A DNA stretch of 64,000 nucleotides from assembly GCA_965225855.1 (NCBI GenBank), contig CBDDCK010000005.1, positions 928,001 through 992,000 of the forward strand. The letters run 5' to 3'. Position numbers and translations under genes: made by a program. The stretch is from Spirochaetia bacterium. GTDB lineage: Bacteria; Spirochaetota; Spirochaetia; SP-2023. Below are positions 1 to 32,468 of the stretch, piece by piece. Every line of letters begins with the position of its first letter. The first letter of the stretch is position 1. The notes beneath the pieces were generated by a model that was not told the DNA's origin, did not search any database, and saw nothing but the letters and a program-made list of their open reading frames with translations.

Positions 1-772
1 ATAGTTTGAAATATTTTCGTAAGTGTTTCTTCGGTGTTTCGCTGGCAATGCAGTGCAATAGCGCCAGTAAAGTGGTTTTGCCTGTGCTGTTCTTGCCCAA
101 AAATAAATTGATTTGGCCAAATTCCATCGCCAATTGTGGCAGGGCATATAGCCGGTCTAGCTCCAAACTCTGTATTTTTATCGGTTTAAAATCCTGCGGT
201 TTTACCAGCTTAGATTGGTATTCATGGCTTTTGTCCAGCATGGGGTAGTGATCGGATAGTTGATTTACTTTTCGGCTATCGGCCAAGGCTTGTTCGTACT
301 TTCCTTGTTTGGCATAGCATTCACTGCGATATAAATAGTAGAAAACCATAGCGTTTGGGTTTCTCTCTATCAATTGGTCGTACTCGGCAAGTGCGAGATT
401 CCACTGTTCTGTTCTTTCGTATAACAAGGCTCTATCAACATAGATCGACATATAGTCTGGGTTTAATTCAATTACTTTGTTGTAATTCTCTAAGGCTTTA
501 TCCCATTGTTCTTGCATTTGATATACATTACCTCGTTGATGATAAGCAGGTAAATAGTTTGGCTCTATCGCCAGGGCTTGGTTTAAATCTTGCAAAGATT
601 GCTCTAATTCCCCTAGGTATCTATAACTTATTGCTCTGCTGTTGTAGATTTCAGCATTGTGTGGTTCTAGTTCAATCGCCACGGTGTAGGCTGCAATAGC
701 CTCCGCGTCATTGCCTGCTTTTTGTCGCTTTTGCCCTCGATTGAAATGCTTTTTTGCTTCTTTATTTTTCAT
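1..772 (-). CDS. TPR + ABC/AAA ATPase fusion protein, runs off window start (paralogue of 8076..10190)
   Basis: Not in ORF track. Manual translation from ATG at 772: MKNKEAKKHFNRGQ..., ~5 TPRs, then KIQSLELDRLYALPQLAMEFGQINLFLGKNSTGKTT (Walker A), closely matching the 704-aa paralogue; GGAG upstream. Confidence 0.85.
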   Translation of the reverse strand, partial: MKNKEAKKHFNRGQKRQKAGNDAEAIAAYTVAIELEPHNAEIYNSRAISYRYLGELEQSLQDLNQALAIEPNYLPAYHQRGNVYQMQEQWDKALENYNKVIELNPDYMSIYVDRALLYERTEQWNLALAEYDQLIERNPNAMVFYYLYRSECYAKQGKYEQALADSRKVNQLSDHYPMLDKSHEYQSKLVKPQDFKPIKIQSLELDRLYALPQLAMEFGQINLFLGKNSTGKTTLLALLHCIASETPKKHLRKYFKL

Positions 773-794
773 GATGTGGCTCCTGTGTTTACGA

Positions 795-2315
795 TTGATA
801 AACCGTTTATCAATGGTTTACGGACTCATTTTAACCGATTGGGATTCTAAAGGGTATAGACCCTTTAGCGGGGTTTCGGGCAGAGCCCCGGATATAATAG
901 TAAAGAGTAGGCTTGTCAATCGGTGGTAGTTGTATCATTTATCAATGGTTTACGGACTCATTTTAACCGATAGGGATTCTAAAGGGTTTAGACCCTTTAG
1001 CGGGGTTTGGGGCAGAGCCCCGAATATAGTAATAAAGAATAGGTTTGTCAATAGGTGGTAGTTGTATCATTTATCAATGGTTTACGGACTCATTCTAACC
1101 GATAGGGATTCTAAAGGGTTTAGACCCTTTAGCGGGGTTTGGGGCAGAGCCCCGAATATAATAGTAAAGAGCTGGTTTGTCAATAGGTGGTAGTTGTATC
1201 ATTTATCAATGGTTTACGGACTCATTTTAACCGATAGGGATTCTAAAGGGTTTAGACCCTTTAGCGGGGTTTGGGGCAGAGCCCCGAATATAGTAATAAA
1301 GAATAGGTTTGTCAATAGGTGGTAGTTGTATCATTTATCAATGGTTTACGGACTCATTCTAACCGATAGGGATTCTAAAGGGTTTAGACCCTTTAGCGGG
1401 GTTTGGGGCAGAGCCCCGAATATAGTAATAAAGAGTTAGCTTGTCAATCGCTGGTAGTTTTCCATATTGTCAACGATAGGGATTCTAAAGGGTCAAGACC
1501 CTTTAGCGGGGTTTGGGGCAGAGCCCCGAATATAAAAATAAATAGTTTACTTGTCAATAGGTGGTAGTTGTATCATTTATCAATGGTTTACGGACTCATT
1601 CTAACCGATAGGGATTCTAAAGGGTTTAGACCCTTTAGCGGGGTTTGGGGCAGAGCCCCGAATATAGTAATAAAGAGTTAGCTTGTCAATCGCTGGTAGT
1701 TTTCCATATTGTCAACGATAGGGATTCTAAAGGGTCAAGACCCTTTAGCGGGGTTTGGGGCAGAGCCCCGAATATAGTAATAAAGAGCTGGTTTGTCAAT
1801 CGCTGGTAGTTTTCCATATTGTCAACGATAGGGATTCTAAAGGGTTGCGACCCTTTAGCGGGGTTTGGGGCAGAGCCCCGAATATAATAGTAAAGAGCTG
1901 GTTTGTCAATAGGTGGTAGTTGTATCATTTATCAATGGTTTACGGACTCATTTTAACCGATAGGGATTCTAAAGGGTTGCGACCCTTTAGCGGGGTTTGG
2001 GGCAGAGTCCCGGATATAGTAATAAAGAGCTGGTTTGTCAATCGGTGGTAGTTGTATCATTTATCAATGGTTTACGGACTCATTCTAACCGATAGGGATT
2101 CTAAAGGGTTGCGACCCTTTAGCGGGGTTTGGGGCAGAGCCCCGGATATAGTAATAAAGAGCTGGTTTGTCAATCGGTGGTAGTTGTATCATTTATCAAT
2201 GGTTTACGGACTCATTTTAACCGATAGGGATTCTAAAGGGTTGCGACCCTTTAGCGGGGTTTGGGGCAGAGTCCCAAATATTACAATAAAGAGTAGGCTT
2301 GTCAATCGGTGGTAG
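795..2315 (-). repeat. Tandem array of 12 double-hairpin/promoter units (132-bp and 110-bp periods)
   Basis: Core gggattctaaagggtNNNNaccctttagcggggtttggggcagagcccc at 841, 973, 1105, 1237, 1369, 1479, 1611, 1721, 1831, 1963, 2095, 2227. Confidence 0.95.
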
Positions 2316-2787
2316 TACCGGTAATATTCAGTACTTCAGCTAAGCACTTTAGCAAATTCGATACTTCGGTAAGCCACAGAGTTAAGTTCCTTTGCCCTAT
2401 GCTGGTATTGCCACCGTGTGCAAGTTGATTGCGGTTTTTAATTAAAGCAGCTATGGCATCTTTGGTTTCTTGGGTTATTCTTTGCTTAAATGCTTGTTGT
2501 AATGGCTCTGTTATATCTCCTAACAATTGTGAGAGTACGTCAAACTTAAATGAGCTTTGGCGGCGCAAAATGCGCTTTTGCACTAACTGATTCAGTGATT
2601 CTCCCGAATTTTGTGCCACATACTGCAACAGGTATTGCTTGACAGACTGTTCATAGTGCGCACTGATACGAATGCAAAGATACTGGTTAAAGTCCCCTTG
2701 CAAGTCGACATCTTCTATAGCAGTAGACTTTTCTAGCTTTTGTTGTAAGCGATTATTGTTGGTGCTTATGTTGTAATCTGCTACCAT
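2302..2787 (-). CDS. HEPN-domain protein (RiboL-PSP/MAE_28990-like putative RNase)
   Basis: R-x4-H motif RNQLAH; N-terminal helix 'ISAHYEQSVK'; directly downstream of a DUF262 gene. Confidence 0.75.
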   Translation of the reverse strand: MVADYNISTNNNRLQQKLEKSTAIEDVDLQGDFNQYLCIRISAHYEQSVKQYLLQYVAQNSGESLNQLVQKRILRRQSSFKFDVLSQLLGDITEPLQQAFKQRITQETKDAIAALIKNRNQLAHGGNTSIGQRNLTLWLTEVSNLLKCLAEVLNITGTTTD

Positions 2788-2790
2788 AAT

Positions 2791-3906
2791 CTACAGTTTG
2801 GCAAAGGTTTGTTGTGCTAAGTCAAAGCGTTTATCTACATGGTTTTCGTCCGCTGTAGGGCCTTTACAGTATTCTTTGTATGTATTGTTCTGCAACAATT
2901 CATCGTATAATGTTTTGACTCTCTGTGGTTTAAGCTCTGTATTACTAGACAATTTGTGGGCCAACGCTACCATTACCGAATCAAAACAAGCTGCATTAAA
3001 GATTTTAAAAGGCCGAAAGGCTTTGTTTGGTTCACCGTTAAAAGCATCATAGACCAGCTTTATTGTGCGGCCAAATAACTGAAAGTCGATATTGCTACCG
3101 TCTTTATGTGCACTCATAAACTCGTTCATAAACTTTTTATATGGTGCTTTATAGTTTGCTCTGTTGTAGTAGTAGGCATAAAAACGCAGTATATATTCCT
3201 CATCTTTTTTGCGGTTATCTTCCTTGCCGTAGATGGCCCGCCAGTGCTGATTCTGGTTGAGTTGCTCGAGTTGATTGTTAAACTCACCCATATACATACA
3301 GGCCCTAAGCTCTTGGGGCGCCAATACCCGCCCGCTGGAATTGAGCCTTTCAAACACTAAGTAAATGCCACTCTGGCTGCGATCGGGTTTTTCTTGCTTT
3401 ACAACCGTAATATGTAGCATGGCATTGTCTAGCTTTCTTTGGTAGACATCCGCTAAGTCTTGGTATGTTTTACCATGAAGTGGGTTGCTTTTACCCAGTT
3501 GCAAGGCAAAACTTGTCGCTGGTTTTGTACCTGTAGGGAACTGATTGGCAAAGAATCCTTCAATGGTTTTTAGCCGTTGTTGGCCGTCAATTACCATAAA
3601 CTTTTCATCATTTGTTTTGGCTAAAAAGATGGTAGGGATAGGCAAATCCATCAATAGCGATTCTATAAATCGGGAAGCTTCGGCTTTATTCCAGACGTAG
3701 TTGCGTTGGTAGTTCGGTATAATAAACTCTTGCTTTTGTAGTTTTCTAACCAGAATCTCTACAGTAAAGTCCACCCCATACGTACTAATCTCATAATTAT
3801 ATCGTATATCTTCATTTTCTCCGCTTTCTTGTTCGGCTTGCAATTCCTGCTGTTCTGGTGTTAATCGATCACGAAAGTTATTGTCAATATCGCTTTCTTG
3901 GGACAT
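2791..3906 (-). CDS. DUF262 (GmrSD/ParB-like) protein
   Basis: IPNYQRNYVW, FIESLL..LPIP, VIDGQQRL, VFERLNSSG motifs. Confidence 0.9.
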   Translation of the reverse strand: MSQESDIDNNFRDRLTPEQQELQAEQESGENEDIRYNYEISTYGVDFTVEILVRKLQKQEFIIPNYQRNYVWNKAEASRFIESLLMDLPIPTIFLAKTNDEKFMVIDGQQRLKTIEGFFANQFPTGTKPATSFALQLGKSNPLHGKTYQDLADVYQRKLDNAMLHITVVKQEKPDRSQSGIYLVFERLNSSGRVLAPQELRACMYMGEFNNQLEQLNQNQHWRAIYGKEDNRKKDEEYILRFYAYYYNRANYKAPYKKFMNEFMSAHKDGSNIDFQLFGRTIKLVYDAFNGEPNKAFRPFKIFNAACFDSVMVALAHKLSSNTELKPQRVKTLYDELLQNNTYKEYCKGPTADENHVDKRFDLAQQTFAKL

Positions 3907-4069
3907 CGTATCCTCCTTTTATAAAGGGCAGAATAAACAAATAACTATTTGGGGTCAAACGAATGTAGAGTATAAATTCTATTTTTTGAGGTAGGGAAGT
4001 CTATTAAAAATAAACACTGAATCGGCCTAAATTAAATCCATTATCACCGATTTCTATCTTAGCTATCTA

Positions 4070-4541
4070 TAACATTATTTGGGGCTCTGCCCCAAACCCC
4101 GCGCAAGGGTCTATACCCTTGAGGATCCCAATCGTTGATTGTTTAAGTTACTCTTTGGCAACCTGTCTTTAATCATCACTTATTTTTACCCCAACTATCT
4201 ACTATATCATTCGGGGCTCTGCCCGAAACCCCGCGCAAGGGGTTATACCCTTTAGAATCCCAATAGTGCATAGTTTAAGTTACTCTTTGGCAATCTGTCT
4301 TTAATTATCACTTATTTTTACACCACTTATCTATAACATCATTCGGGGCTCTGCCCGAAACCCCGCGCAAGGGTCTATACCTTTTAGAATCCCAATCGGT
4401 TATAGTTTAAGTTACTCTTTGGCAATCTGTCTTTAATTATCACTTATTTTTACACCACTTATCTATAACATCATTCGGGGCTCTGCCCGAAACCCCGCGC
4501 AAGGGTATCTACCCTTTAGAATCCCAATCGTGTATAGTTTG
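4070..4541 (+). repeat. Array of 4 double-hairpin units, opposite orientation, 132-bp period
   Basis: ggggctctgccc(c/g)aaaccccgcgcaaggg...ccctt...atccc at 4081, 4213, 4345, 4477. Confidence 0.95.
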
Positions 4542-4623
4542 ACTGTTTGTTGGTGATAATCTATTGGTTGGTCTACTAGCAATAGATGGTCGATCATATA
4601 TTTTGTTAGCCTACAGAGTCAAG

Positions 4624-5202
4624 CTAGCTTGTTCCATTGTATGATAATTGCCCTTGTAAATGCTGGTTTACGGCCTCTATCAATGCCATTGAATGCTGAT
4701 ACATCTGCGAAATATCTTCCACGGTTAGCTGGCCTAGGTTTTGTTCTACGTAATTTTTATGGACAAGCTCATTGCGCTTATACCCCAATCTTATGAAAGA
4801 CTTGGCATAGCTCTCACTATAGCGATCGATACTTGTTAGTGATTCCATTTCTATATCTATGCTTTTTAGAAACCTATTAAAGCCACGTTGGTGTGGTTCT
4901 TTAAACTCAAACAGTTTATAAAACCCCCGATCGAAAACTTTAGTTTCTACTAGCTTAGTTAGGGAAGTAGTCTTGCTTGCATTTTGTAACCACTGTTTGA
5001 GCATTTCAATAAAGCAATGTTCGACATAACTAAAAGCAGAAATCACTAACGACTTACGCAGCTCTAGGTTTAGTTGGTTGGCATCGTCAAACTTCTCTTC
5101 AGCAGATAGAAATTCTTGTATTCTATGGCATAACTCTATCGATTGCTCTATTGAGCCCTTTGTTTGCATTGTTGTTTGTTGCATAAACTTATACTTTTGC
5201 AA
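4624..5202 (-). CDS. HEPN-domain protein
   Basis: RKSLVISAFSYVEH and RNELVH (R-x4-H); overlaps the upstream DUF262 stop. Confidence 0.75.
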   Translation of the reverse strand: MQKYKFMQQTTMQTKGSIEQSIELCHRIQEFLSAEEKFDDANQLNLELRKSLVISAFSYVEHCFIEMLKQWLQNASKTTSLTKLVETKVFDRGFYKLFEFKEPHQRGFNRFLKSIDIEMESLTSIDRYSESYAKSFIRLGYKRNELVHKNYVEQNLGQLTVEDISQMYQHSMALIEAVNQHLQGQLSYNGTS

Positions 5203-6361
5203 GAATATCTTTGGCAGTTTGTATGCGTTGTTCTACCAGTCCTTTGTTGGTAGTCGGTAGGTTGGTTTGTTGCAATCGCTGTTGAATAGTTTTCTTCAGC
5301 TGGTCAAACTGGGCTACTGTAATCGAGACTTGCACTTGCCCCTTGCAAGAAAGCTGGGCCCAAGCGGTAAACAATGCATCGAGTATCGTAACTAAAAATC
5401 TACCGTCATTACTTTTCAAGTTATAACTTTCTATGGGCTGGGTAAAGCTATTCAGAAAGTTAGCAAACATTTGTCTACACTCTGCAAGTTGTTCTTCGGT
5501 GAAGTCTTTTGTTGTTAGCGAAAAGGTATTGAGGAAACGTGCCATAGGTGGCTTGTATTCTTCGGCGTCAGCCAGAGCAAAACAACGCAACAAATACTCT
5601 ATATCTTTATAGTTGTTGTCGGGACTGTTTTGGCCTAACAACTTTTGCCATTGCGGTTTACGGTTTAGTTCATCGAGTAGTTGGTAAAACGGACCATCGA
5701 AAATCGATCGTCGTACTTCCTGGGGTGTTAGCTTAGTTCCACCAGTGTTTAAGCGCTTAAAGATTTCATACATCGAAGAAGCCTGATGTTCAGGTTTCGG
5801 ATCAAATTGAGTGATAGTGATAGTCCGCAGTGTTCGCATGTCGAATATCCATTGTTGTTTGATGCTTAGTTCGCTATACTTTATGCCATGCAAATCGTTC
5901 TTTTGTTCTACATTCGTTACTTTAGGGAGCTGCAAGCGGAAGTCTTCAAAGTATGTATTGTCATCAAATAGTTTGGGATCAATAAACTTGTAGCCTGCTT
6001 GTAGGGACTTTGACCGGATGGTGCCGTACTGATCTTTTCTGGGAAAGCGTTGTTTATAGAAAAAGTATATCGAAGATAGGCGCTGTTGGCCATCTATTAA
6101 CAATTGCTGTTTATTGTGTTCAAAGAGGAACAGCTGCGGTATCGGCAGCCCCATGATTAGCGATTCGATTAAAGAAGACGCTTGTTTTTTGTTCCACGTA
6201 AAGTTGCGTTGAAACGGTGGAATGGTGAATGAGCCTCGATCAATAAACTTTACTAAAGATTCAATATTCCAATCATTGGGTAGCGATCTTATATCATAAA
6301 CGGTTAATCCCGTTGCGTCATCCTCCTCTTCCTCTAATGGTTGTGCTTGATTTTCAGCCAT
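5189..6361 (-). CDS. DUF262 (GmrSD/ParB-like) protein
   Basis: IPPFQRNFTW, LIESLIMGLPIP, IDGQQRL, IFKRLNTGG. Confidence 0.9.
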   Translation of the reverse strand: MAENQAQPLEEEEDDATGLTVYDIRSLPNDWNIESLVKFIDRGSFTIPPFQRNFTWNKKQASSLIESLIMGLPIPQLFLFEHNKQQLLIDGQQRLSSIYFFYKQRFPRKDQYGTIRSKSLQAGYKFIDPKLFDDNTYFEDFRLQLPKVTNVEQKNDLHGIKYSELSIKQQWIFDMRTLRTITITQFDPKPEHQASSMYEIFKRLNTGGTKLTPQEVRRSIFDGPFYQLLDELNRKPQWQKLLGQNSPDNNYKDIEYLLRCFALADAEEYKPPMARFLNTFSLTTKDFTEEQLAECRQMFANFLNSFTQPIESYNLKSNDGRFLVTILDALFTAWAQLSCKGQVQVSITVAQFDQLKKTIQQRLQQTNLPTTNKGLVEQRIQTAKDILAKV

Positions 6362-6539
6362 AATGTCAACCTCCTCAATTGGTTTTTACCCGCTAGATTA
6401 TAGAAAAACACCGCCAGTTGTGCCATAACATGCTCTAAATTTTGTTGCATTTGCTTTCTGATACCCTACAGAAAGGCTGCCTATATATTTGAGTGATGGT
6501 AGATATTTGCACGATTGCCACTCCAACTATCCGCTATAG

Positions 6540-7420
6540 TATCTGGGGCGCTGCCCCAAACCCCGCGCAAGGGGTCTATACCCTTTAGAATCCCAATCGT
6601 GTATAGTTTAAGTTACTCTTTAGCAATCTGTCTTTGGCTTTCATTGATTTTTACCTTGACTACCTACAACATTATTCGGGGCGCTGCCCCAAACCCCGCG
6701 CAAGGGTCTATACCCTTGAGGATCCCAATTTGTTATAGTTTATCCGTAGACCATAAATAAATGATGAAACTATCAATGATGGACAAACCAATTATTTATT
6801 ATATTATTCGGGGCTCTGCCCCAAACCCCGCGCAAGGGTCTATACCCTTGAGGATCCCAATTTGTTATAGTTTATCCGTAGACCATAAATAAATGATGAA
6901 ACTATCAATGATGGACAAACCAATTATTTATTATATTATTCGGGGCGCTGCCCCAAACCCCGCGCAAGGGTCTATACCCTTGAGGATCCCAATTTGTTAT
7001 AGTTTATCCGTAGACCATAAATAAATGATGAAACTATCAATGATGGACAAACCAATTATTTATTATATTATTCGGGGCTCTGCCCCAAACCCCGCGCAAG
7101 GGTCTATACCCTTGAGGATCCCAATTTGTTATAGTTTATCCGTAGACCATAAATAAATGATGAAACTATCAATGATGGACAAACCAATTATTTATTATAT
7201 TATTCGGGGCTCTGCCCCAAACCCCGCGCAAGGGTCTATACCCTTGCGAATCCCAATTTGTTATAGTTTGTCTTATTGTTTGTTGCTCTGTCTTTGGCTT
7301 TCATTGATTTTTACCCCCACTACCTACTATATCAATCGGGGCTCTGCCCCAAACCCCGCGCAAGGGTCTATACCCTTACGAATCCCAATCGTGTATAGTT
7401 TGCTTGTCAATCGGTGGTAA
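6540..7420 (+). repeat. Array of 7 double-hairpin units, 132/133-bp period, two spacer types
   Basis: Cores at 6545, 6678, 6810, 6942, 7074, 7206, 7338. Confidence 0.95.
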
Positions 7421-7495
7421 TCTGACCAATACCCTACAATTTTCGATCGGTTGATCGATTAAATTGAGCCTTTTTTCCCACTATTTAGGAAATGC

Positions 7496-8083
7496 TTATC
7501 CATTTTCCAGGCTCAAGAATACATTGAGTTTTTCTTTGGCTAATTGCTGGTCGATTAGCTTAAATTCAAAAGGCAATCTGTCATTCATTATGGTTGTATA
7601 CTTGTTTATTTCCGTTTCAATATTCTTTTTCCAGTCATCAAACTGTTGTTGACCCTGTAGATCGTCTTTTACATAGTAAATGAAATACAAGCATACTCGT
7701 TGGGGTTGGTTGTGGATAAAGTTGTTATCAATGGTAAAATTCCATTGATGAGAAAAGGCCAATAGCAAGGTATCTAAAGCTTTCTTGATGATTTCTTGTA
7801 GCTGTTCTTGCTTATATTGCTTGATAATATGGCGTTTGATGTCTTTAATAGAATTGCCTTCTCCGATAATTCCTTGCCATTCCGTAATATCTCTTTGGTA
7901 TGCTTTGGGCTGGTATTCGGAAACTTCGACAAAATAAAACCACTGTTGTTTGCTATAGAAAAAGTCCATATCCTTTAATTTCCAATTGCTTCCCAGTTTG
8001 TCTTCCACTTTAAAGCAGTTGGTTTCATTTAGGTTTTCATCTTCAAACCTTACGGTTAATCGGCTTTCTGTAAACTCAATCAT
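7496..8083 (-). CDS. Hypothetical protein coupled to the ATPase; possible degenerate PD-(D/E)xK nuclease fold
   Basis: 8-bp overlap with ATPase stop; 'DMDFF...FYFVEVS' resembles a D...ExK motif with K>S. Confidence 0.6.
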   Translation of the reverse strand: MIEFTESRLTVRFEDENLNETNCFKVEDKLGSNWKLKDMDFFYSKQQWFYFVEVSEYQPKAYQRDITEWQGIIGEGNSIKDIKRHIIKQYKQEQLQEIIKKALDTLLLAFSHQWNFTIDNNFIHNQPQRVCLYFIYYVKDDLQGQQQFDDWKKNIETEINKYTTIMNDRLPFEFKLIDQQLAKEKLNVFLSLENG

Positions 8084-10190
8084 GCCACATTACCTCGTCA
8101 TAATGGTCATGCATCTCTAATGCTTCGGCCAATATCTCGTTATCTGGCACGCCGTCTTTAAGGTCATTGCAGATGTAACCTTGCTTAGTTAAGGCAAAAC
8201 AAAAGGCGCTTTGTTGGTTGCGTTTGCTGGCAATTACCAGTTCTTCTAGTACAAAAGAGCTGTGACTGGCGATGAATATTTGCACGCCTTTCGCCGCTAG
8301 TGCAGCCAAGATTTGCACAAACTGGCGCACGAAAGCGGGGTGAAGGTTGGCTTCGGCCTCGTCTATCAACAACACACTTTCACGAGTGATGCTGTGGTTT
8401 TCTAGCAATAAGCGCAGCAATTGCAGCTTTTTTATCCCTTCCGCTCCCTGCTCTAAGGGTATTGTTTCACCGCTAGCCAGTTTGTAACTAAATTCATTGC
8501 GGGGGCTAGATTTGCGATTGCGCTCTACCGATTCGCTGCCTTTGTAGTGTTGTTCAAAGCATTCCAGCAGGTTCTGTTGGCGATTGCTGAGCTGCTTATC
8601 TGGGCTATTGCGGAGCAACTTCTGGCAAGTTTGGCTATCAATAGCACTATATTCATGGGGTAGGGTGATTATGGCACGGTACAAACTCAATAGGCATTTG
8701 TCTGGGATAAACACAGGTTCAAATAAGGTTGTGCCTCTATGCGATTGGTTTGTGGTGCTGTTCCATTGCCATTGTTGCTGATAGCTTTGCAAAAATGCTT
8801 GGATATTGGCCTGCTCTATCACCGATAGTGCAAAGTGTTGTTGTAAATTTTGTTTGGGGTTGTCGCTGGCAATGCAGTGCAATACCTTCAATAAAGTGGT
8901 TTTGCCTGCACCATTTTTACCCAAAAATAAATTGAGTTGGCCAAACTCCATCGCCAATTGGGGTAGGGCATATAAGCGATTTAGCTCCAGCTTCTGTATT
9001 TTTCTTGGTTGGAAATCTTGTTGCTTTACTAGCTTTTCTTGGTATTCTCGTGCTTGTTGATCTATAAAAGGAAATCCCGGCATCAATTGGTTTACCTTGC
9101 GGTTATCGGCTAAAGCCAGTTCGTACTTCCCTTGTTGTGCATATAGCATGCTGCGGTTCATGTAGGCTACTGCATTGGTTTTGTCTAATTCAATCGCTTG
9201 GTTGAAGTCTAACAGAGCCTGATCTTCTTGCCCTTGTTCTGCGTATAGTGCCCCACGATTGCCATAGGCATCTGCATAGTCTCGGTTTAATTCAATCGCT
9301 TTATGGTAATCTTCCAGAGCCTGCTCCCATTGCCCTCTTTCTGTATATAATAGGCCTCGGTTATAGTAAGCTGCAACATTGCCCAACTCAATCGCTTTGT
9401 TGTAGTCTAACAGAGCCTTATCTGTTTGCCCTTGTTCTGCGTATAATACCCCACGATTGCCATAGGCATCTGCATAATCTGGCTGTAACTCAATTGCTTG
9501 GTCGTAGTCTTTCAAAGCCTTATCCGTTTGCCCTTGCTTTTTATATAATACACCTCGGTTGTTGTAAGCTGTAACATTGCCCAACTCAATCGCTTGGTTG
9601 TAGTCTTCCAGTGCCTTATCTTCTTGCCCTTGTTTTTGGTATAGGTTTCCACGATTGCCATAGGCATCTGCATAGTCTCGGTTTAATTCAATCGCTTTAT
9701 GGTAATCTTTTAGAGCCTCATGCCATTGCCCATGTTTTCGATATAAGTTGCCTCGGTTGTTGTAAGATTCAACATTACCCAACTCAATCGCTTGGTTGTA
9801 GTCTAACAGAGCCTTATCTTCTTGCCTTTGTTCTGCGTATAGTACTCCACGATTGCCATAGGCTGCTGCATTGTCTGGCTGTAATTCAATCGCTTGGTCG
9901 TAATCTTTTAGTGCTTGATCCAGTAGTCCTTGTTCCCGATATAGATTGCCTCGGTTATAATAAGCTGTAGCATTGTTTGGTCTTATCGCAATGATTTCGT
10001 CATAATCTCCCAAGGATTTTTCCCATAAACCTAGGTTTTTGTATAAGTTTCCTCGGTTGCTGTAGGCTTCAATACATTTATTGTCTAGCTCAATAGCCTT
10101 GGTGTAGGCTTCAATGGCCGCCTCTATGTTCCCTGTTTTTTGGTAGTTTTCTCCCTGTTCAAAGTAGGCTTTTGCTTCTGGGTTTGGCAT
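8076..10190 (-). CDS. 11-TPR array fused to ABC-type (AAA_15/AAA_21-like) ATPase
   Basis: AYxNRG repeats; Walker A GKNGAGKT, AEG signature, Walker B LLIDEAE, NLHP, H-loop IASHS. Confidence 0.9.
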   Translation of the reverse strand: MPNPEAKAYFEQGENYQKTGNIEAAIEAYTKAIELDNKCIEAYSNRGNLYKNLGLWEKSLGDYDEIIAIRPNNATAYYNRGNLYREQGLLDQALKDYDQAIELQPDNAAAYGNRGVLYAEQRQEDKALLDYNQAIELGNVESYNNRGNLYRKHGQWHEALKDYHKAIELNRDYADAYGNRGNLYQKQGQEDKALEDYNQAIELGNVTAYNNRGVLYKKQGQTDKALKDYDQAIELQPDYADAYGNRGVLYAEQGQTDKALLDYNKAIELGNVAAYYNRGLLYTERGQWEQALEDYHKAIELNRDYADAYGNRGALYAEQGQEDQALLDFNQAIELDKTNAVAYMNRSMLYAQQGKYELALADNRKVNQLMPGFPFIDQQAREYQEKLVKQQDFQPRKIQKLELNRLYALPQLAMEFGQLNLFLGKNGAGKTTLLKVLHCIASDNPKQNLQQHFALSVIEQANIQAFLQSYQQQWQWNSTTNQSHRGTTLFEPVFIPDKCLLSLYRAIITLPHEYSAIDSQTCQKLLRNSPDKQLSNRQQNLLECFEQHYKGSESVERNRKSSPRNEFSYKLASGETIPLEQGAEGIKKLQLLRLLLENHSITRESVLLIDEAEANLHPAFVRQFVQILAALAAKGVQIFIASHSSFVLEELVIASKRNQQSAFCFALTKQGYICNDLKDGVPDNEILAEALEMHDHYDEVMWHD

Positions 10191-10214
10191 GGTGTGTCTC
10201 CTGTCTTTACTATA

Positions 10215-10345
10215 GATAAACCGTTTATCAACGGTTTACGGAATCATTCTAACCGATTGGGATTCTAAAGGGTCGAGACCCTTTAGCGGGGTTTGGGGCA
10301 GAGCCCCGAATATTATCATAAATAGTTTACTTGTCAATCATTGAT
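10215..10345 (-). repeat. Single double-hairpin unit directly upstream of the TPR-ATPase gene
   Basis: Same core near 10259-10308 with TTGACA on the minus strand. Confidence 0.9.
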
Positions 10346-10413
10346 ATTTCCATCATTTATTTATGGTTTTTAGTTTTTCAATAGTGTATAGTATCTAGTA
10401 GAATAGCTAATAG

Positions 10414-13272
10414 TTATTCGGTTTTAACCTTATTGTCGCTGGGTTTGTCGGTTGTTTGGGCCTGGTGTTTGTGTTTATAATGCTCTGCCAATTCTGCATG
10501 CACCCAGTCTTTTACCTTTAATCTTAGCTTGGTTCTGTGTTCATATTGCGGCAATTCATACAAGCTCAAATGCAATTTCTGCACAAATTCCGTTTGCTCT
10601 GTCTGCTTGTAATGGTCCACCATTACGGGAATATGCTGGGCTATCAATGCTTTGTGCTGGTAGAATTGCCGTTTTCTTTTAGCCGTAAGGTAGCGGCTTG
10701 TATGTAAAACCATCCAGTAGATAAACAAGGTATAAAACGGGGTGAGGGCCAACAATATATAAAGGCCTTGCCATATAACTATGACTAATATCCCAATAGT
10801 TACCGCAGTAATAGTCAAAATCCCCTTATGTTCAAGTTTAAAGAAATTGAATACCGCTTCAATCTTTGCCAGTGCTTCCTTCTCTTCTCTTTGAAACTCT
10901 TCCTTTTTATCGCTAAAACCTTGATGTAGTTCTTCTTTAAGAACCTTTGCTAGTTGCTGTTTCTGTTGCTCTATCTTGCCTAAACTATTTATATTATCCA
11001 CAGCTTTAAGGTATAAGTCTTTGGCTTGTTCAATATTTTTCTCTAGCTTTTCTTTGGCAAAGTCTTGGGCTTTTTGCCAAATTTTTCTGGCAGAATCTCT
11101 CCGGTTATCGGCTAATTCTTGCTCTGCCCATTGGCTATATAAGATGCTAAGATTAGTCCAAGCTAGAACATCATCTGGCTGTAATTCAATCGCTTGGTCG
11201 TAGTCTTTCAGAGCTTTATCCAGTTGCCCTTGCTTTTCATATAATCGGCCTCGGTTATAGTAGGCTGTAACATTGCCCAACTCAATCGCTTTGTTGTAGT
11301 CTTCGAGTGCTTTATCTGGTTGCCCTTGTTCTTCGTATAGGTTTCCACGATTGCCATAGGCTTCTGCAAAGTCTGGGTTTAATTCAATCGCTTGGTCGTA
11401 GTCTTTCAGAGCTTTATCCAGTTGCCCTTGCTTTTCATATAATCGGCCTCGGTTATAGTAGGCTGTAACATTGCCCAACTCAATCGCTTTGTTGTAGTCT
11501 TCGAGTGCTTTATCTGGTTGCCCTTGTTCTTCGTATAGGTTTCCACGATTGCCATAGGCATCTGCATCATCTGGCTGTAACTCAATCGCTTTGTTGTAAT
11601 CTTTTAGTGCCTTATCCAGTTGCCCTTGCTTTTTATATAGATTGCCTCGGTTGTTGTAAGCTGTAACACTGCCCAGCTCAATCGCTTGGTTGTAGTCTAA
11701 CAGAGCCTTATCTTCTTGCCCTTGTTCTGCGTATAGTACTCCACGATTGCCATAGGCATCTGCATCATCTGGCTGTAATTCAATGGCTTGGTCGTAATCT
11801 TTTAGAGCCTCATGCCATTGTTTTTGCTTTTGATATAGATTGCCTCGGTTGTTGTAAACGTCAACATCGCCCAACTCAATCGCTTGGTTGTAGTCTTCCA
11901 GTGCCTTATCTGGTTGCCCTTGTTCTGCGTATAATACCCCACGATTGCCATAGGCTGCTGCAAAGTCTGGCTGTAATTCAATGGCTTTATCGTAGTCTTT
12001 TAGTGCTTGATCCAGTAGCCCTTGTTCTGCATATAATAGGCCTCGGTTATAGTAGGCTGTAACATTGCCCAGCTCAATCGCTTGGTTGTAGTCTAACAGA
12101 GCCTTATCTTGTTGCCCTTGTTCTGCGTATAATACCCCACGATTGCCATAGGCATCTGCAAAGTCTGGCTGTAATTCAATCGCTTGGTCGTAATCTTTTA
12201 GAGCCTCATGCCATTGTTTTTGTTTTTGATATAATCGGCCTCGGTTATAGTAGGCTGCAACACCGCCCAACTCAATCGCTTGGTTGTAGTCTAAAAGTCC
12301 CTTATCTTCTTGCCCTTGTTCTGCGTATAATACCCCACGACTCACATAGGCATCTACAAAGTCTGGCTTTAATTCAATTGCTTTGTTGTAATCTTCCAGG
12401 ACTTTATCCGTTTGCCCTTGCTTTTGATATAGATTGCCTCGGTTATAGTAGGCTTCAATATAGCCCAACTCAATTGCTTGGTTGTGGTCTAATAGAGCCT
12501 GATCCCATTGCCCTTTTTTTACGTATAGCACTCCACGATTCGTATAGGCTTCTGCAAAGTCTCGGTTTAACTCAATCGCTTTGTTGTAATCTTCCAGGGC
12601 TTTATCCGTTTGCCCTTGCTTTTGATATAGATTGCCTCGGTTATAGTAAGCTTCAACATTGCCCAACTCAATCGCTTGGTTGTAGTCTAACAGAGCCTGA
12701 TCTTCTTGCCCTTGTTCTGCGTATAGGTTTCCACGATTCGCATAGGCTTCTGTAAAGTTTGGCCTTAATTCAATCGCTTTATGGTAATCTTCCAGAGCTT
12801 TATCTGGTTGCCCTTGCTTTTCATATAATACACCTCGGTTGTTGTAAGCTGCAACATTGCCCAACTCAATCGCTTGGTTGAAGTCTAAAAGTGCCTTATC
12901 TGTTTGCCCTTGTTCTGCGTATAATACCCCACGATTGCCATAGGCATCTGCATAGTCTGGCTGTAATTCAATCGCTTGGTCGTAATCTTTTAGTGCTTGA
13001 TCCGATAGCCCTTGTTTTTGATATAGATTGCCTCGGTTGTAATAAGTTATAGCATTGGTTGGCTCTATCGCAATGGCTTTGTTGTAATCAACCATGGCTT
13101 CGGCCCATTTTCCTATTTCTCTATATAAGATTGCTCGGTTGTTATAGGCTTTAATACATTTATTGTCTAGCTCAATAGCTAGGGCATAGGCCTCAATGGC
13201 CGCCTTTATATTTCTTACTTCTTGGTGGTTTTCCCCCTGTTCAAAGTAGGCTTTTGCTTCTGGGTTTATCAT
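10414..13272 (-). CDS. ~22-TPR array protein with C-terminal coiled coil and two TM helices
   Basis: Alternating 34/31-aa TPRs; hydrophobic segments GILTITAVTIGILVIVIW and LYILLALTPFYTLFIYWMVL. Confidence 0.85.
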   Translation of the reverse strand: MINPEAKAYFEQGENHQEVRNIKAAIEAYALAIELDNKCIKAYNNRAILYREIGKWAEAMVDYNKAIAIEPTNAITYYNRGNLYQKQGLSDQALKDYDQAIELQPDYADAYGNRGVLYAEQGQTDKALLDFNQAIELGNVAAYNNRGVLYEKQGQPDKALEDYHKAIELRPNFTEAYANRGNLYAEQGQEDQALLDYNQAIELGNVEAYYNRGNLYQKQGQTDKALEDYNKAIELNRDFAEAYTNRGVLYVKKGQWDQALLDHNQAIELGYIEAYYNRGNLYQKQGQTDKVLEDYNKAIELKPDFVDAYVSRGVLYAEQGQEDKGLLDYNQAIELGGVAAYYNRGRLYQKQKQWHEALKDYDQAIELQPDFADAYGNRGVLYAEQGQQDKALLDYNQAIELGNVTAYYNRGLLYAEQGLLDQALKDYDKAIELQPDFAAAYGNRGVLYAEQGQPDKALEDYNQAIELGDVDVYNNRGNLYQKQKQWHEALKDYDQAIELQPDDADAYGNRGVLYAEQGQEDKALLDYNQAIELGSVTAYNNRGNLYKKQGQLDKALKDYNKAIELQPDDADAYGNRGNLYEEQGQPDKALEDYNKAIELGNVTAYYNRGRLYEKQGQLDKALKDYDQAIELNPDFAEAYGNRGNLYEEQGQPDKALEDYNKAIELGNVTAYYNRGRLYEKQGQLDKALKDYDQAIELQPDDVLAWTNLSILYSQWAEQELADNRRDSARKIWQKAQDFAKEKLEKNIEQAKDLYLKAVDNINSLGKIEQQKQQLAKVLKEELHQGFSDKKEEFQREEKEALAKIEAVFNFFKLEHKGILTITAVTIGILVIVIWQGLYILLALTPFYTLFIYWMVLHTSRYLTAKRKRQFYQHKALIAQHIPVMVDHYKQTEQTEFVQKLHLSLYELPQYEHRTKLRLKVKDWVHAELAEHYKHKHQAQTTDKPSDNKVKTE

Positions 13273-13295
13273 GATGTGTCTCCTGTTGTTATGAT

Positions 13296-13870
13296 AGATA
13301 AACCGTTTATCAACGGTTTACGGACTAATTTTAACCGATTGGGATTCTAAAGGGTATAGACCCTTTAGCGGGGTTTGGGGCAGAGCCCCAGATATTATAA
13401 TAAAGAGTTGTTTTGTCAATCATTGATAGATAAACCGTTTATCAACGGTTTACGGACTAACTCTAACCGATTGGGATTCTAAAGGGTCGAGACCCTTTAG
13501 CGGGGTTTGGGGCAGAGCCCCAGATATTATAATAAAGAGTTGTTTTGTCAATCATTGATAGATAAACCGTTTATCAACGGTTTACGGACTAACTCTAACC
13601 GATTGGGATTCTAAAGGGTCGAGACCCTTTAGCGGGGTTTGGGGCAGAGCCCCAGATATTATAATAAATAGTTAGCTTGTCCATCATTGATAGTTTTATC
13701 ATTTATTTATGGTTTTTAGTTTTTCAATAGTGCATAGTTTCTTTTATTGTTTAGGAATTTAACCCTTATTATCCATTATTCCCACCCAACCTATCTGCTA
13801 TATCAATTGGGGCTCTGCCCCAAACCCCGCACAAGGGTATATACCCTTGAGGATCCCAATAGTGCATAGT
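13296..13870. repeat. Three minus-oriented units (132-bp period) plus one plus-oriented unit
   Basis: Cores at 13341, 13473, 13605; inverted core at ~13809-13860. Confidence 0.9.
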
Positions 13871-13872
13871 TA

Positions 13873-16800
13873 TTATTTTTCTTGATGATTCTTTGCTTCC
13901 TTTTCCAGCATTTCCAGTAGCTCTACCGTCTGTAGGCTGACCGTGATTACACGACAAACCAAGTCGATAATGGCTTCTTTGTGCTCGGCAAAGCTAAAGG
14001 CAGGGACTAACTCTGCAATGGTCGGGTCTTTAATCTTTAGGGCTTGACGGTAGCGTTCCAGTGGCCAATCTATCGCACTTCGGTTGCCTAGGCGGTAACT
14101 CCAAGCGATAGTCGGAATGTTTGTTAGCGTGGTTTGGTTGTCGATTCGTATCGTTCCATTGGCAGAATCGCTTTTTAGTTTGGGCAACAATACCAATTCT
14201 GGTTCTGCTTGCTGTGGTTCTTCGCTTGGGCTATCACTGAATAAAGGCCCGTCAATCGCTTTTTTCTTTTGGGGCTTTTTACTATTTGCTTCTTCTCTTT
14301 GGCAAGTAAACGGTTCTACTGTGGCAAAGTTTATATGCAATTCTGCCAATTGTTGGCCGATACTCTGGTAATGAGCAAAGTCTTCTTTAGTAGACCCCAA
14401 CAACGGCATTCGTGGAAAGCTGCGCTTCAAATCTACGGCATACTTCTCGCGATAGCTCGATAAATGCAACACAGCATAGCAATAGTGCCAGATACTTTCG
14501 GCCATAATGGCCTCGTCTTTGTAGTGTTCTCTAAACTTCTTTAAACCATACTCGGTAACATTGCTGCGCTTTTCGCCTTCTTTTGTCCAGTAATATAGTG
14601 GTATACATTGGCTGTCTCCAGTTGCATGTAAATCGACAATCGTATCGCTTGCCAGTGTTTGAAAGTCTTTAGCTGTACCGGGTGCAGCTAAACAAAGGTA
14701 GATATTTGGTTGTTCTTTGCGCCATATCTGCGGCCATTGATAGGTCATCGAATTAAAATTCTTGTCGTAGTACAGGTGCATTGTAGTAAAGGGGCGGTAC
14801 AAACACAACACAATCTGTTCTTGGTTATAGCTTTTGGTTATGCCTCTTTTCAGGTATTTGTTTAGCTCTCTATCCCATTTAATGCTTTGTTTATCGCTGG
14901 TTTTGCCCTCTAAAGTCTGTTGATATACCTTGCTAAAGTACTGCATCTTGGTTTGTAAATCGTCTATATCAAAATCATAAACCCATTCATCTCGCTGGCT
15001 CTTTAACCCATTAGAAAAGGTTTTGAATAAAGGAGTTTCTCCTTTTGCCGTTGCTTTGCCTTCTTTGACTTGCTTATTAATAATAGGAATCAAGCTATGC
15101 CAATCGTTATCGGTTTGCTGTAGCCAATGGTTTTGTTTACTGGGCACAATCTGCCTAAAGTCTATTTTATCTATGGGATTGCCTTGCAACCAAGCTAACT
15201 TTTGCCCTTTCGTCCATTCATCTTCTACGCTTGTGTAGTGTAAAGTAGTGCTTTGTAGCTCTGAATCTCGCACGAAAAACAGAATACTTACGCCTACCAT
15301 AATATCAAATACATTGCCTACTGCCGTTCCCTTTCCACCAGAGGTGCGCACATTACCGCCCAGATCGACAATATAAATCCGTTGAAAGTCCTGCATAACA
15401 CAGCTACGCAAACCGTCCAAAGCCATTGCATCAATAAAACTTCTGTTGCATACAAAGGCCACAATTCCGTTATTTTTAAGGCGATCACTGGCATAACGCA
15501 CAAAGCGAATGTACATATCATAAAGCTGGTTTTTGTTTTGTGCGCTTCCTTGCTTGGCGTAAGTTTGTTTAATTCTTTGGTCAATAAAAGGGTACTTTCG
15601 GTTAGAGTTTTGGTCATTGTAGCTTATTTGTTTGGCATTATACGGCGGGTTACCGATGATCAAACTAATATTCTTGTTGTTTTGTTCGGCGATTCTCTCG
15701 GCATTTGTGCTAGAAAGTCCAAACAACTCTAAGCGATTGTTGGGGGCATTCGTGCCTAGGGCTTCGGTATTGTCTAGGGTATCGGCAAAGCATAAACCGC
15801 TAAATTCTTTATATTCTTTCATCTTTTGTTGGTATGTGTATTCTATATTCAAGGCGGCAATGTAGTAAGGAAGTATCGCCACTTCATTGGCATGTAGCTC
15901 GTGTTCATACTTATATTGTAGGCTTTCCTTTGGCAGTTTCTCTATCAGTTCGCAAATGAATGTGCCCGTACCTGTGGCAGGGTCTAGGATTTCCACGCCT
16001 GGACTGCCCAAGGTTTTGCCAAAGTGTTCGGCCAACAAATGGTTAGAACTGTCTATCATAAAGTCGACAATCTCGGTGGGAGTGTACACAACTCCCAGCC
16101 GATCTGCCATCTTCGGGTTATACGCCTTGTAGAAACTCTCATAAACTGCCTTCAAGAATTTCTGCTTCTCATGGTGATCTTCAATCTGTTTAGCGTGCGC
16201 ACTCAAGGTAGAATAGTAGTGTTCTATGTTGCTAAGTAGGCGCATGCGTTCGGCTCTACTTAGGAAAGTCGCCACCAATGTTTCCAATTGTTGGCCTATG
16301 TTGTTACTGCGGTGGAATCTTGTATCGCTGAAAATACTACTGAATAGCTCTTCTGTAAGTACGTGTTGTACCAACATCTCATCTATATCATGCGTGGTAA
16401 TTTCTTTGTTTATCGTCTGTTTACAAGTTTCATAAAAGCGATTGTGTTCCTCTCTAAAGCCGATATTTTCCTTGTGTTGTTGCTGTACTAGCTCCACAAA
16501 GTGCGCAGCTATCTGGGGAATATCGGCGGTAAACTGTTCTAAAGCCGCTTGAAATTCCTTTACCTCTGGTGGAGTGTAGGCGGTAAACTGCAGCAATAAC
16601 TGGTGCAGTTTGTGCTTATCGCTAAACGAAACTCGGCCATATTCTTGGCTATTCTGGTACAGAATCGCCTGCATACTGTCTTCAAATAGAATGTTGTTTC
16701 TGGGGTATCCTTTGGCAAACTTTACTTGAATCTCTTTGTCTATGTCGTCTTTCGAGTCCTTACTTTCCCAAAAGCCAAAGTCTAAACGCAAGGCATTCTT

Positions 16801-16998
16801 TAGCGTTCCGTCCGGCCTTGGGCTCTTGTTTCGTGCTTTGTGGGGCAGTTCCCGCACTAAAAACAGGTTTTGTTTGTCCGCATAATGGTTGATCAAACGC
16901 TCAAAGCAACTCTTGATCTGCTCTTCATTGCGGCTGCCTCCGTACTGTATCACCTTGTCGCGTTCACTTAAATAGGTTTCAATCTGCGCTATACTCAT
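13873..16998 (-). CDS. Single-polypeptide restriction-modification enzyme (type IIG / type ISP-like, no helicase)
   Basis: N-terminal RPDG...FWESK nuclease motif; VYTPTEIV, LDPATGTGTF, IGNPPY N6-MTase motifs; ISP-type C-terminal region (YRPF, FPRMP). Confidence 0.85.
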   Translation of the reverse strand: MSIAQIETYLSERDKVIQYGGSRNEEQIKSCFERLINHYADKQNLFLVRELPHKARNKSPRPDGTLKNALRLDFGFWESKDSKDDIDKEIQVKFAKGYPRNNILFEDSMQAILYQNSQEYGRVSFSDKHKLHQLLLQFTAYTPPEVKEFQAALEQFTADIPQIAAHFVELVQQQHKENIGFREEHNRFYETCKQTINKEITTHDIDEMLVQHVLTEELFSSIFSDTRFHRSNNIGQQLETLVATFLSRAERMRLLSNIEHYYSTLSAHAKQIEDHHEKQKFLKAVYESFYKAYNPKMADRLGVVYTPTEIVDFMIDSSNHLLAEHFGKTLGSPGVEILDPATGTGTFICELIEKLPKESLQYKYEHELHANEVAILPYYIAALNIEYTYQQKMKEYKEFSGLCFADTLDNTEALGTNAPNNRLELFGLSSTNAERIAEQNNKNISLIIGNPPYNAKQISYNDQNSNRKYPFIDQRIKQTYAKQGSAQNKNQLYDMYIRFVRYASDRLKNNGIVAFVCNRSFIDAMALDGLRSCVMQDFQRIYIVDLGGNVRTSGGKGTAVGNVFDIMVGVSILFFVRDSELQSTTLHYTSVEDEWTKGQKLAWLQGNPIDKIDFRQIVPSKQNHWLQQTDNDWHSLIPIINKQVKEGKATAKGETPLFKTFSNGLKSQRDEWVYDFDIDDLQTKMQYFSKVYQQTLEGKTSDKQSIKWDRELNKYLKRGITKSYNQEQIVLCLYRPFTTMHLYYDKNFNSMTYQWPQIWRKEQPNIYLCLAAPGTAKDFQTLASDTIVDLHATGDSQCIPLYYWTKEGEKRSNVTEYGLKKFREHYKDEAIMAESIWHYCYAVLHLSSYREKYAVDLKRSFPRMPLLGSTKEDFAHYQSIGQQLAELHINFATVEPFTCQREEANSKKPQKKKAIDGPLFSDSPSEEPQQAEPELVLLPKLKSDSANGTIRIDNQTTLTNIPTIAWSYRLGNRSAIDWPLERYRQALKIKDPTIAELVPAFSFAEHKEAIIDLVCRVITVSLQTVELLEMLEKEAKNHQEK

Positions 16999-18558: not shown

Positions 18559-18631
18559 TGCCACCGGTGAGAATCGAACTCACGACACAGGGATTTTCAG
18601 TCCCTTGCTCTACCGACTGAGCTACAGCGGC
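18559..18631 (-). tRNA. tRNA-Phe(GAA), CCA not encoded
   Basis: GCCGCTGTAGCTCAGTCGGTAGAGCAAGGGACTGAAAATCCCTGTGTCGTGAGTTCGATTCTCACCGGTGGCA folds as a cloverleaf with anticodon GAA. Confidence 0.95.
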
Positions 18632-21045: not shown

Positions 21046-21208
21046 TGATTCTCCTCTTATTTGATAGCTTGGTAAGACAGCGAGTATTTTGGCTTCTCGA
21101 TCGTTATTTTTGAAACGCTACGGGCAAGCTTATTTTCCGTATCAATTTATAAAGTTTATCGGCCTAACTGAAAACTATTGACTAAGAATTTTTATAAATT
21201 TTCTGCAA
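19402..21208. repeat. Copy 1 of ~1.8-kb direct repeat (metE 5' part + upstream region)
   Basis: Apparently identical to 26436..28242 (offset 7034 bp). Confidence 0.9.
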
Positions 21209-21709
21209 TACTTTTATGGTACAGTTTACCAAGCTGACAGTTAGCCCCTACGCCCTTGCATTACATTACAAATCGCCTTGGCCTGTTTTTTGCCAAGGAA
21301 GCAACCGTAAATTATAGCCTTAATAAAAATTTTTATAGCCTTGCTAATTGTTTTTTGCAAGGCTATTTTTACTTGTTGTAGCCTTGGATATTTTGATAGT
21401 AACGCTGAAGACACTTTCTTTTTGGTTAAAATGAATTAAGCTTGAGTTATTGCTAAACTTAACGTTTAGCCAAGTTTACGGTAGTTCCTACTAGAAAGTA
21501 AGCTCAAAAAAATTTTTTATTCTTGACAACTCAAATATCCTGCTCAATAATACTGTCCGTAGGAACGGAAAGCATTATTAGGTAAAAAATATGGGTCTAA
21601 TCCTAAGCAAAATTTACAATTAGTTTAAAATAAAAATTTACAATTAGTTTAAAATAAGTTAATAATATTTATTTTGAGTTGGTTTCTATTAAAAAATGAG
21701 GGAAACTCT

Positions 21710-28079: not shown

Positions 28080-28242
28080 TGATTCTCCTCTTATTTGATA
28101 GCTTGGTAAGACAGCGAGTATTTTGGCTTCTCGATCGTTATTTTTGAAACGCTACGGGCAAGCTTATTTTCCGTATCAATTTATAAAGTTTATCGGCCTA
28201 ACTGAAAACTATTGACTAAGAATTTTTATAAATTTTCTGCAA
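26436..28242. repeat. Copy 2 of ~1.8-kb direct repeat
   Basis: Matches 19402..21208. Confidence 0.9.
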
Positions 28243-28477
28243 AGCTTGTACTACGAGGCTATTGGCTAGCAACGAGTGTAGTGCTGTTGATAGATTATTT
28301 TCGCTGTAGATTGACCGGTTTTAAAGTTACTCGCAGAACTTAATGGGCTTGCGAACAACAGCCATACTTTGGTTATACTACTAGCTATCCAGCTGGCCGC
28401 CATAGCCTTGGCTTTCGCTAAAGTAGTGCTTTGTTTTGTGGAATTGCTAAGTTTATTGTTAAAAATTATATAAGATG

Positions 28478-32187: not shown

Positions 32188-32468
32188 CCAACCAAAGGCT
32201 GGAACAGACAAGCCACAAACACCCAGGCTTATACAAATTTTTACCCCAGTAGTCTCAAATAATTTATTGGCTACTAAGCAACGTATTTGCCTACAACACT
32301 AAGATACAAAAAAAGTGCCCAAACATAGAAAAAGCACAAAAAAACTTACAAAAAGCTTACAAAAAGCTTATATGGGCCTTGACGCAACACCCCCCCTAGC
32401 AAAATAGGGATTTACAGACTAGCCCGTATGGGTTGGCTAATCTTTATCCATTTTTGGAGGTATTGCTT

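Follow-up and report, generated by a model that had tools for sequence, protein, structure and literature searches.

In a Spirochaetia bacterium we describe a gene island whose modules are spaced by a stackable repeat. Within the 64,000-nucleotide stretch analysed here (the window), an apparently foreign, REP-like double hairpin lies beside a predicted sigma-70 promoter in one 132-bp unit, and tandem copies of this unit space the island. From the sequence and from the likeness to known phage elements, it appears rather probable that the units are chromosomal, tandemly amplified regulatory linkers of the PeSL type that homologous recombination and slippage have reshaped. Little is understood of how defence hotspots on chromosomes acquire, shed, and tune their genes where no integrase or transposase is at work. 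If the reading is true, a single stackable linker of 132 bp would drive expression, offer sites for recombination, and serve as a copy-number dial. Furthermore, its core exposes a repeat family across many phyla for which no description was found in the literature searched.

The island belongs to a spirochaete chromosome and has argG and metE as neighbours. As the preliminary description had it, the six modules all lie on the minus strand in one shared orientation, at the places it gave. Units were assigned to class A (n=16, core on the plus strand) or class B (n=12, opposite orientation). The features are:

2..772, running beyond the left edge of the window, minus strand: TPR-ATPase 1, 5' part (506 aa in full)
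773..2305, minus strand: array 1, 12 class A units (132/110 bp), each with TTGACA box, core, and spacer
973..1021, plus strand: example core, 8-9-bp stem-loop, then a G4-T3-G4-loop-C4 hairpin
1023..1051, minus strand: example class A promoter (predicted), TTGACA-17-TATATT, 11/12
2302..2787, minus strand: HEPN-1 (RiboL-PSP-HEPN), by family scan
2791..3906, minus strand: DUF262/GmrSD_N protein 1, PD-T4-2_A / NsnA-like, by family scan
4061..4539, plus strand: array 2, 4 class B units, -35 box decayed
4624..5202, minus strand: HEPN-2 (RiboL-PSP-HEPN), by family scan
5189..6361, minus strand: DUF262/GmrSD_N protein 2, by family scan; the DUF262+HEPN pairs are PD-T4-2/NsnA-like
6525..7420, plus strand: array 3, 7 class B units
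6780-6807, 6912-6939, 7044-7071, and 7176-7203, plus strand: four TGGACA-16-TATTAT sites, antisense to the 3'-end of the partner gene
7496..8083, minus strand: partner gene, DUF6661/NERD-like by language-model features; weak HEC-02B match
8076..10190, minus strand: TPR-ATPase 2, 704 aa with about 10 TPRs; HEC-02A (PADLOC), E=8e-48
10191..10392, minus strand: single class A unit with predicted promoter at 10337-10309
10414..13272, minus strand: TPR-TM protein, about 20 TPRs, hydrophobic C-terminal part
13273..13871, no single strand: array 5, 3 class A units (cores at 13370, 13502, and 13634) and 1 class B unit (13809)
13873..16998, minus strand: type IIG/ISP-like restriction-modification fusion (RM), by family scan

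On the minus strand, the DUF262+HEPN modules span 3906-2302 and 6361-4624, and the TPR-ATPase+partner module 10190-7496. The idea that all modules serve defence holds for most of them by family scans. HEC-02A is the best PADLOC match of the proteins combining TPRs with an ABC/AAA ATPase; TPR-ATPase 1 is a HEC-02A-like ABC/AAA ATPase with TPRs at its N-terminus, and among named homologues of the ATPase the nearest is that of Candidatus Haliotispira prima, which puts the organism among the spirochaetes. The partner gene likely encodes a nuclease. The exception is the TPR-TM protein, for which family scans matched TPR repeats only and no defence family, while its C-terminus yielded no family, no Atlas match, and no longer homologue. 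Its 5'-end is paralogous to that of TPR-ATPase 2, and a role in defence is suggested by context alone. The TPR arrays at 9180-10080 and 11080-13160 of the window consist of 198-bp double units common to the two genes. To the left of the window the island continues for about 3 kb, where another partner gene, the 3' remnant of a HEPN gene (81% to 4556-4718 of the window), a third TPR-ATPase (494 aa, without repeat unit), and a 232-aa gene with no matched family are located; the core is absent from the gaps of this extension. A tRNA gene on the minus strand (18559-18631 of the window) lies beyond argG, 1.6 kb from the right edge of the island, and no link to the island was seen. This tRNA was the sole match of an Rfam gathering scan, which gave none to the core.

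The core of the unit is about 49 bp long and folds into two predicted hairpins with modest folding z-scores (-1.3 to -2.8). By regular expression and nhmmer, 28 cores were counted in the 2.71-Mb genome, and 28/28 are located between positions 836 and 13862 of the window. All 28 nhmmer matches had E<1e-16, and the best match off the island had E=1.3. This bears out the claim that the repeat occurs in every gap between the modules, with none noticed past 13.9 kb. The five gaps hold 12(+), 4(-), 7(-), 1(+), and 3(+) plus 1(-) cores, mostly as tandem units spaced by 132 bp; exceptions are spacings of 110 bp (three times) and 133 bp (once). Hence, the statement that each module is individually delimited by the repeat stands as far as the five gaps are concerned; it fails for the 5'-end of the RM gene and for the gaps of the left extension, where no core was found, so not all modules are bracketed.

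The spacers are mosaics common to both orientations, and class B spacers are inverted class A-type spacers. The two classes are 35-70% alike in this part and align almost gap-free. Elsewhere in the genome, island spacers had no significant match except in the region of the HEPN remnant. A CRISPR array was rejected, since the spacers are repeated and not unique. Unit lengths of 132 and 110 bp are multiples of 22, near the genome-wide period of short arrays, perhaps by chance, but the periodicity of the spacer itself is about 26 bp; a model of the unit built of 22-bp sub-blocks was discarded because the autocorrelation peak is at 26, not 22.

The way in which units adjoin the genes differs between the classes. 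Class A runs before the three TPR genes end in AGGAG and ATG at a constant distance from the core, array 1 terminating in the ribosome binding site (RBS) of TPR-ATPase 1, which agrees with the earlier observation that units end just before the RBS of these genes. Class B units follow the 3'-ends of HEPN-2, the partner gene, and the RM gene, likewise as described before. The motif CAAT(A/C)GTG(C/T)ATAGT, noticed initially near four stop codons, turned out to be the tail of the repeat unit. Its 7 copies in the genome are all in the island, and it lies 2 bp from the stop of RM, 21 bp from that of TPR-TM, 85 bp from that of HEPN-2, and 96 bp from that of the partner gene. Stranded tail motifs were found at 10379-10392 on the plus strand beside the single class A unit, and at 13725 in array 5, where the class B unit stops 2 bp short of the RM stop. 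The first unit of array 1 supplies the final codons and the TGA stop of HEPN-1, the stop being situated within the TTGACA box. Thus, modules and repeats are either 2-96 bp apart or joined within a reading frame.

A sigma-70-like promoter was predicted at a fixed position in 16 of the 28 units, 12 of which point to TPR genes and 4 of which face the 3'-end of the partner gene. These predicted boxes give a concrete basis to the sense/antisense control that had been proposed as one role of the repeats. In terms of sequence match only, 12/16 class A and 4/12 class B units score at least 10/12 against the sigma-70 consensus, and 4/16 and 8/12, respectively, score 9/12 or less. The -35 box is kept in 16/16 class A units (15 with TTGACA, 1 with TGGACA) and decayed in most class B units. 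A promoter scan returned 64 sites versus 39.4 (sd 6.9) in shuffles, and array 1 holds all eight best matches of the 17.3 kb scanned; since tandem units share one ancestor, these matches are not independent. None of the 7 terminator-like matches in a scan for intrinsic terminators falls in any unit. The link between promoter and core is local: exact TTGACA at the corresponding position was present in 0/130 cores of other genomes, and within one mismatch in 3/130. A search of metagenomes for the promoter-plus-core pattern returned 7 loci, none a tandem defence array, which were read as coincidental.

Two duplications contain the unit together with the 5'-end of a TPR gene. The segments 9187-10369 and 12269-13451 are 82.7% identical over 1185 bp, and 452-1215 and 12952-13715 are 77% identical over 766 bp. 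Because unit and TPR 5'-end were duplicated together, the unit before the three TPR genes is, on this comparison, to be read as one event copied and not as three captures. In a congener, TPR-ATPase+partner modules occur at two loci and a DUF262+HEPN module at another place, all of them without the core. Hence, the repeat is not needed for the function of these module types. The neighbours of argG differ in all three congeners.

Data on other strains came from two samples of one other study, with contigs of depth 2-8 compared at 80% likeness. These contigs cover most modules at roughly 80-99% identity. In X4 and X5 (depth 2) HEPN-2 still precedes DUF262 protein 1, and the mix of units between them differs. 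In X7 (depth 8.4) a join of 6505 to 7299 skips 793 bp, and array 3 appears shorter. A 282-bp contig of X7 (depth 4.2) joins window positions 13859-14002, the 3'-end of RM, to 10188-10314, a side that equals one class A unit and a start codon. In that strain, the unit beside the RM gene therefore has the opposite orientation. This join drops the class B unit and may drop TPR-TM, the gene behind the unit being outside the contig. Antisense-type units face HEPN-2 in sample S2. The C-terminal region of TPR-TM is hardly covered, or not at all, in X4, X5, and X7, which counts as evidence only in the case of the X7 join, and X7 also contains an opposite-strand join of 3834 to 4844. No module reordering was seen in the contigs of other strains where this was testable. 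Among the joints listed for the sample that is the likely source, none was of the circle type, but contigs drop rare variants.

A 16,597-bp contig of another strain carries alleles of five island proteins (P0002, P0009, P0011, P0016, and P0017). Its TPR-ATPase allele P0002 has about 2 TPRs and 404 aa, versus 704 aa here, so coding TPR repeats also expand by strain. The HEPN-1 allele on this contig has a different tail, and the HEPN-1 junction differs between strains. The RM allele P0016 is truncated at both ends (543 aa), and the module may be inactive in that strain.

A scan of species genomes with the core pattern found at least 119 loci, among others in Clostridia, Acetobacteraceae, Myxococcota, Synergistaceae, and Chloroflexota. 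The upstream arm, which was left unconstrained, pairs in 112 of the 119 distinct matches listed, compared with 0.19 in the shuffled control. With 4-5 pair types at its outer positions, stem 1 shows compensatory changes and thus covaries; the sequence 5' of it is mostly GGGATT or GGGT. In a survey of neighbours covering 90 of 190 flanking ORFs, with viral loci and frames that looked spurious by eye left out, housekeeping and transport families prevailed. PADLOC matches were few, mostly to one methyltransferase model and generic ATPase-type models. Among 12 neighbours picked by hand, 11 were gyrA, gyrB, gltX, mutS, gdh, radA, ruvB, fliG, argB, sua5, and surE. No BLASTP match linked the island proteins to ORFs around 102 core-bearing loci. 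The core pattern was not found in the 3 congeners and 400 other spirochaete genomes, which suggests that the core arrived by horizontal transfer.

Annotated plasmids and phages contained no match to the unit, and viral contigs held 0 loci of the strict and 22 loci of the loose core pattern. The double-hairpin family, seen in many phyla and some viral contigs, shows GGGAT/GGGGT tags, strong covariation, and a triplex-like G-run layout; no linked transposase was found for it. A congener has a single related multi-hairpin element (L056:9695) between housekeeping-type genes. Core-pattern matches in the genome G001 were rejected as they are located inside a lipoprotein reading frame. Full-text searches with motif strings of 12-14 nt retrieved no published description of the family, which may be included in the supplementary REP lists of PMC6006769 and PMC3733652. 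The only bacterial match to these strings in the searchable text came from a primer located in the oriT region of a Bacillus plasmid (PMC4902927), and the accessible parts of bioRxiv 10.1101/2020.03.09.984088 and PMC13586616 do not describe the arrangement. The core family is thus widespread over many phyla and apparently undescribed.

The preliminary description had proposed that the repeats may be recombination or capture sites for shuffling modules, analogous to integrons but not attC. An attC site consists of RYYYAAC and GTTRRRY boxes on one long hairpin and is used by an integrase. As in integron cassette arrays, co-oriented defence-type genes alternate with structured repeats and stops lie near or in the repeat. 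In contrast to integrons, the R boxes (RYYYAAC/GTTRRRY) are found in 0/28 units at the flank positions tested, in agreement with the earlier view that these are not attC sites; there is no long single hairpin, tandem arrays replace single sites, junctions vary, the multi-gene modules have their own promoters, and no integrase is encoded at the locus. The island is not an integron. That no recombinase is visible in the window was confirmed, and the genome-wide search found only two PF00589 tyrosine recombinases, one on C5 (about 545 kb from the island) and one on C1, both among housekeeping genes and presumably XerD and XerC. With positive controls and a genome that is 94% complete, neither Y1/RAYT genes (PF01797, NF047646) nor a serine resolvase/invertase or IS110 gene were found; recA and a mutS homologue are present. 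The search for the C-terminal part of Mu transposase was silent even in controls, and a DDE transposase may have escaped it. A role of the repeats in recombination of modules fits in so far as they are island-specific, arrays differ between strains, and one low-depth contig joins the RM end to a unit. Site-specific capture of the integron kind, however, is not supported: no cognate recombinase was found, junctions vary, the module order is unchanged where testable, unit and TPR 5'-ends were co-duplicated, and the same core lies beside housekeeping genes elsewhere. A fixed order together with repeats beside housekeeping genes had been named as evidence against shuffling: the former applies where testable, and the latter to other phyla and not to this genome.

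The closest known counterpart is the PeSL of T4-type phages, a composite promoter/stem-loop/RBS linker where recombination adds or removes genes, and for which, in the portions available, promoter activity and circles were reported (Arbiol et al. 2010, PMC2839356; Comeau et al. 2014, PMC4122927). As far as these portions describe it, both systems share a repeated intergenic unit of about 100 bp with a sigma-70-like promoter, a G/C-tract stem-loop, a Shine-Dalgarno sequence, and a start codon, in a variable region, next to genes that vary among close relatives, and with no dedicated recombinase. Class A runs end in the Shine-Dalgarno sequence and start codon like a PeSL, whereas class B units do not. 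The island further differs in its location on a bacterial chromosome instead of the hyperplastic region of a T4-type phage, its defence cargo, 1-12 tandem units per gap in both orientations including antisense, and a double hairpin of outside origin with no terminator score. Thus, the array would work like a PeSL without being a member of this class. New are the stacking of units in tandem, the copies placed antisense, and a double-hairpin core that is borrowed and apparently undescribed.

REP and BIME elements, as far as covered by the accessible text on them (Di Nocera et al. 2013, PMC3733652; Quentin et al. 2018, PMC6006769), are likewise short GC-rich intergenic palindromes with covarying stems, and in other phyla, relatives of the core lie scattered next to housekeeping genes in a similar way. 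In contrast to REPs, the core carries no GTAG or CGTC tag, no RAYT/Y1 gene was found, and it is confined here to one island and fused to a promoter. Tag, dispersal, and RAYT exclude the core from the REP family. The core also resembles intrastrand triplex repeats of the TM-ECO/BoxC kind, whose loci are reported as unstable (Holder et al. 2015, PMC4666352), in having a G-run, short loop, G-run, loop, and C-run in both halves. Its runs are 4 nt long, compared with the minimum of 6 nt given there, its sequence differs from the TM-ECO consensus, and the mirror rule is not strict, as both GGGATT (34) and GGGT tags precede the AAGGG arm. An invertible promoter (inverton) would differ by its invertase, a gene not found here.

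On the PeSL-type reading, class A units would act as batteries of predicted promoters for the TPR genes, and a few class B units as predicted antisense promoters that may damp the nuclease or HEPN genes. Unit copy number would tune expression. At the same time the units may serve as homology blocks for RecA-type recombination and for slippage, so that arrays would change in length and modules would be added or lost. The hairpin may have arrived with horizontally acquired DNA, been fused to a promoter, and then been copied along with the TPR 5' region; amplification of the unit would have followed, with exchange from gap to gap in either orientation.

Alternatively, the arrays could be a neutral by-product: when paralogous genes were copied, a stranded REP-like element would have been carried along and then expanded through slippage, and only the unit nearest the gene would have a role, that of an ordinary promoter. 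We regard this as a possible, if somewhat unlikely, account. The genome is unusually rich in tandem repeats, with 217 merged intergenic arrays, 164 of which have a period of 21-23 bp; at least 10 unrelated families are represented, many flanking a large lipoprotein family. In sampled congener DNA 2 arrays occurred in 225 kb, 11 in 275 kb, and 1 in 160 kb. Amplification is therefore a general habit in this genome, which strengthens the neutral account. It is further favoured by the strain-dependent expansion of coding TPR repeats, by the co-duplication, which explains the placement at TPR genes, by the congener modules devoid of the repeat, and by the tandem reiteration of REPs together with neighbouring DNA described in earlier work (Di Nocera et al. 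2013, PMC3733652). A neutral origin is harder to reconcile with the 132-bp period of all four arrays despite the divergence of class A and B spacers, with units adjoining four unrelated 3'-ends, with the failure of the element to spread beyond the island, and with the persistence of related units in other strains. Structured repeat RNAs (leader, antisense, or decoy) regulating or activating the HEPN and nuclease modules as the main product of the arrays are highly improbable. The promoter directly precedes two hairpins, stem 1 covaries across the family, and antisense-type units face the partner gene here and HEPN-2 in S2, but there is no Rfam match and no terminator delimiting a small RNA, and the family occurs elsewhere without a promoter.

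Degenerate 13-bp inverted repeats flank the core and enclose a stretch of 83 bp, the -35 box being outside and the -10 box just inside. They raise the question of a site-specific switch or cassette, in which a trans-acting or other enzyme flips the 83-bp stretch, toggling the promoter, or captures DNA there; we judge this quite improbable. In class B units none of 432 offsets outscores the flank pair (mean 7.5/13, background 3.75, sd 1.1), which reaches 11/13 in one copy. At the partner-proximal end of array 3, a class A-type -35 block adjoins an inverted core at the 13-bp repeat, RM and TPR-TM end at or in the first bases of this repeat, the X7 join retains the repeat-to-core register of the class A left end, and both unit orientations occur. 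Against this, the repeats are poorly kept in class A (mean 5.3/13), no candidate enzyme of the types listed above was found in the 94% complete genome apart from tyrosine recombinases in a housekeeping context, attC boxes are absent from all 28 units, all genes are co-oriented, the HEPN-1 junction differs between strains, and the X7 join rests on one contig. A broader version, which also seems doubtful, is a phase-variable immune island without its own recombinase, where the 83-bp hairpin unit, a domesticated member of the double-hairpin family, would be flipped, stacked, and exchanged. Lineages would then dial modules up by stacked sense promoters and down by antisense promoters directed against nuclease and HEPN genes.

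Several other repeats were observed in this genome. The window contains an example of the short-period arrays at 47667-48011. Promoter-like arrays of 43 bp (TTGATA-17-TATAAT) are located at C5:890446 and 1566680, and twelve arrays of 46 bp have an extended -10 box TGnTATAAT, e.g. at C5:1184628 and 1187632. By crude ORF calls, 10/12 of the 46-bp arrays and 2/2 of the 43-bp arrays face the 3'-end of a neighbouring gene. The window segments 19402-21216 and 26436-28250 form a direct duplication of 1815 bp (99.8%) that spans metE in its 5' part; the sequence that follows the second copy is unrelated, and the pair is either a recent duplication or an assembly artefact. Positions 32433-34757 and 48172-50301 are inverted paralogues of a repeat-rich surface lipoprotein family with short flanking arrays.
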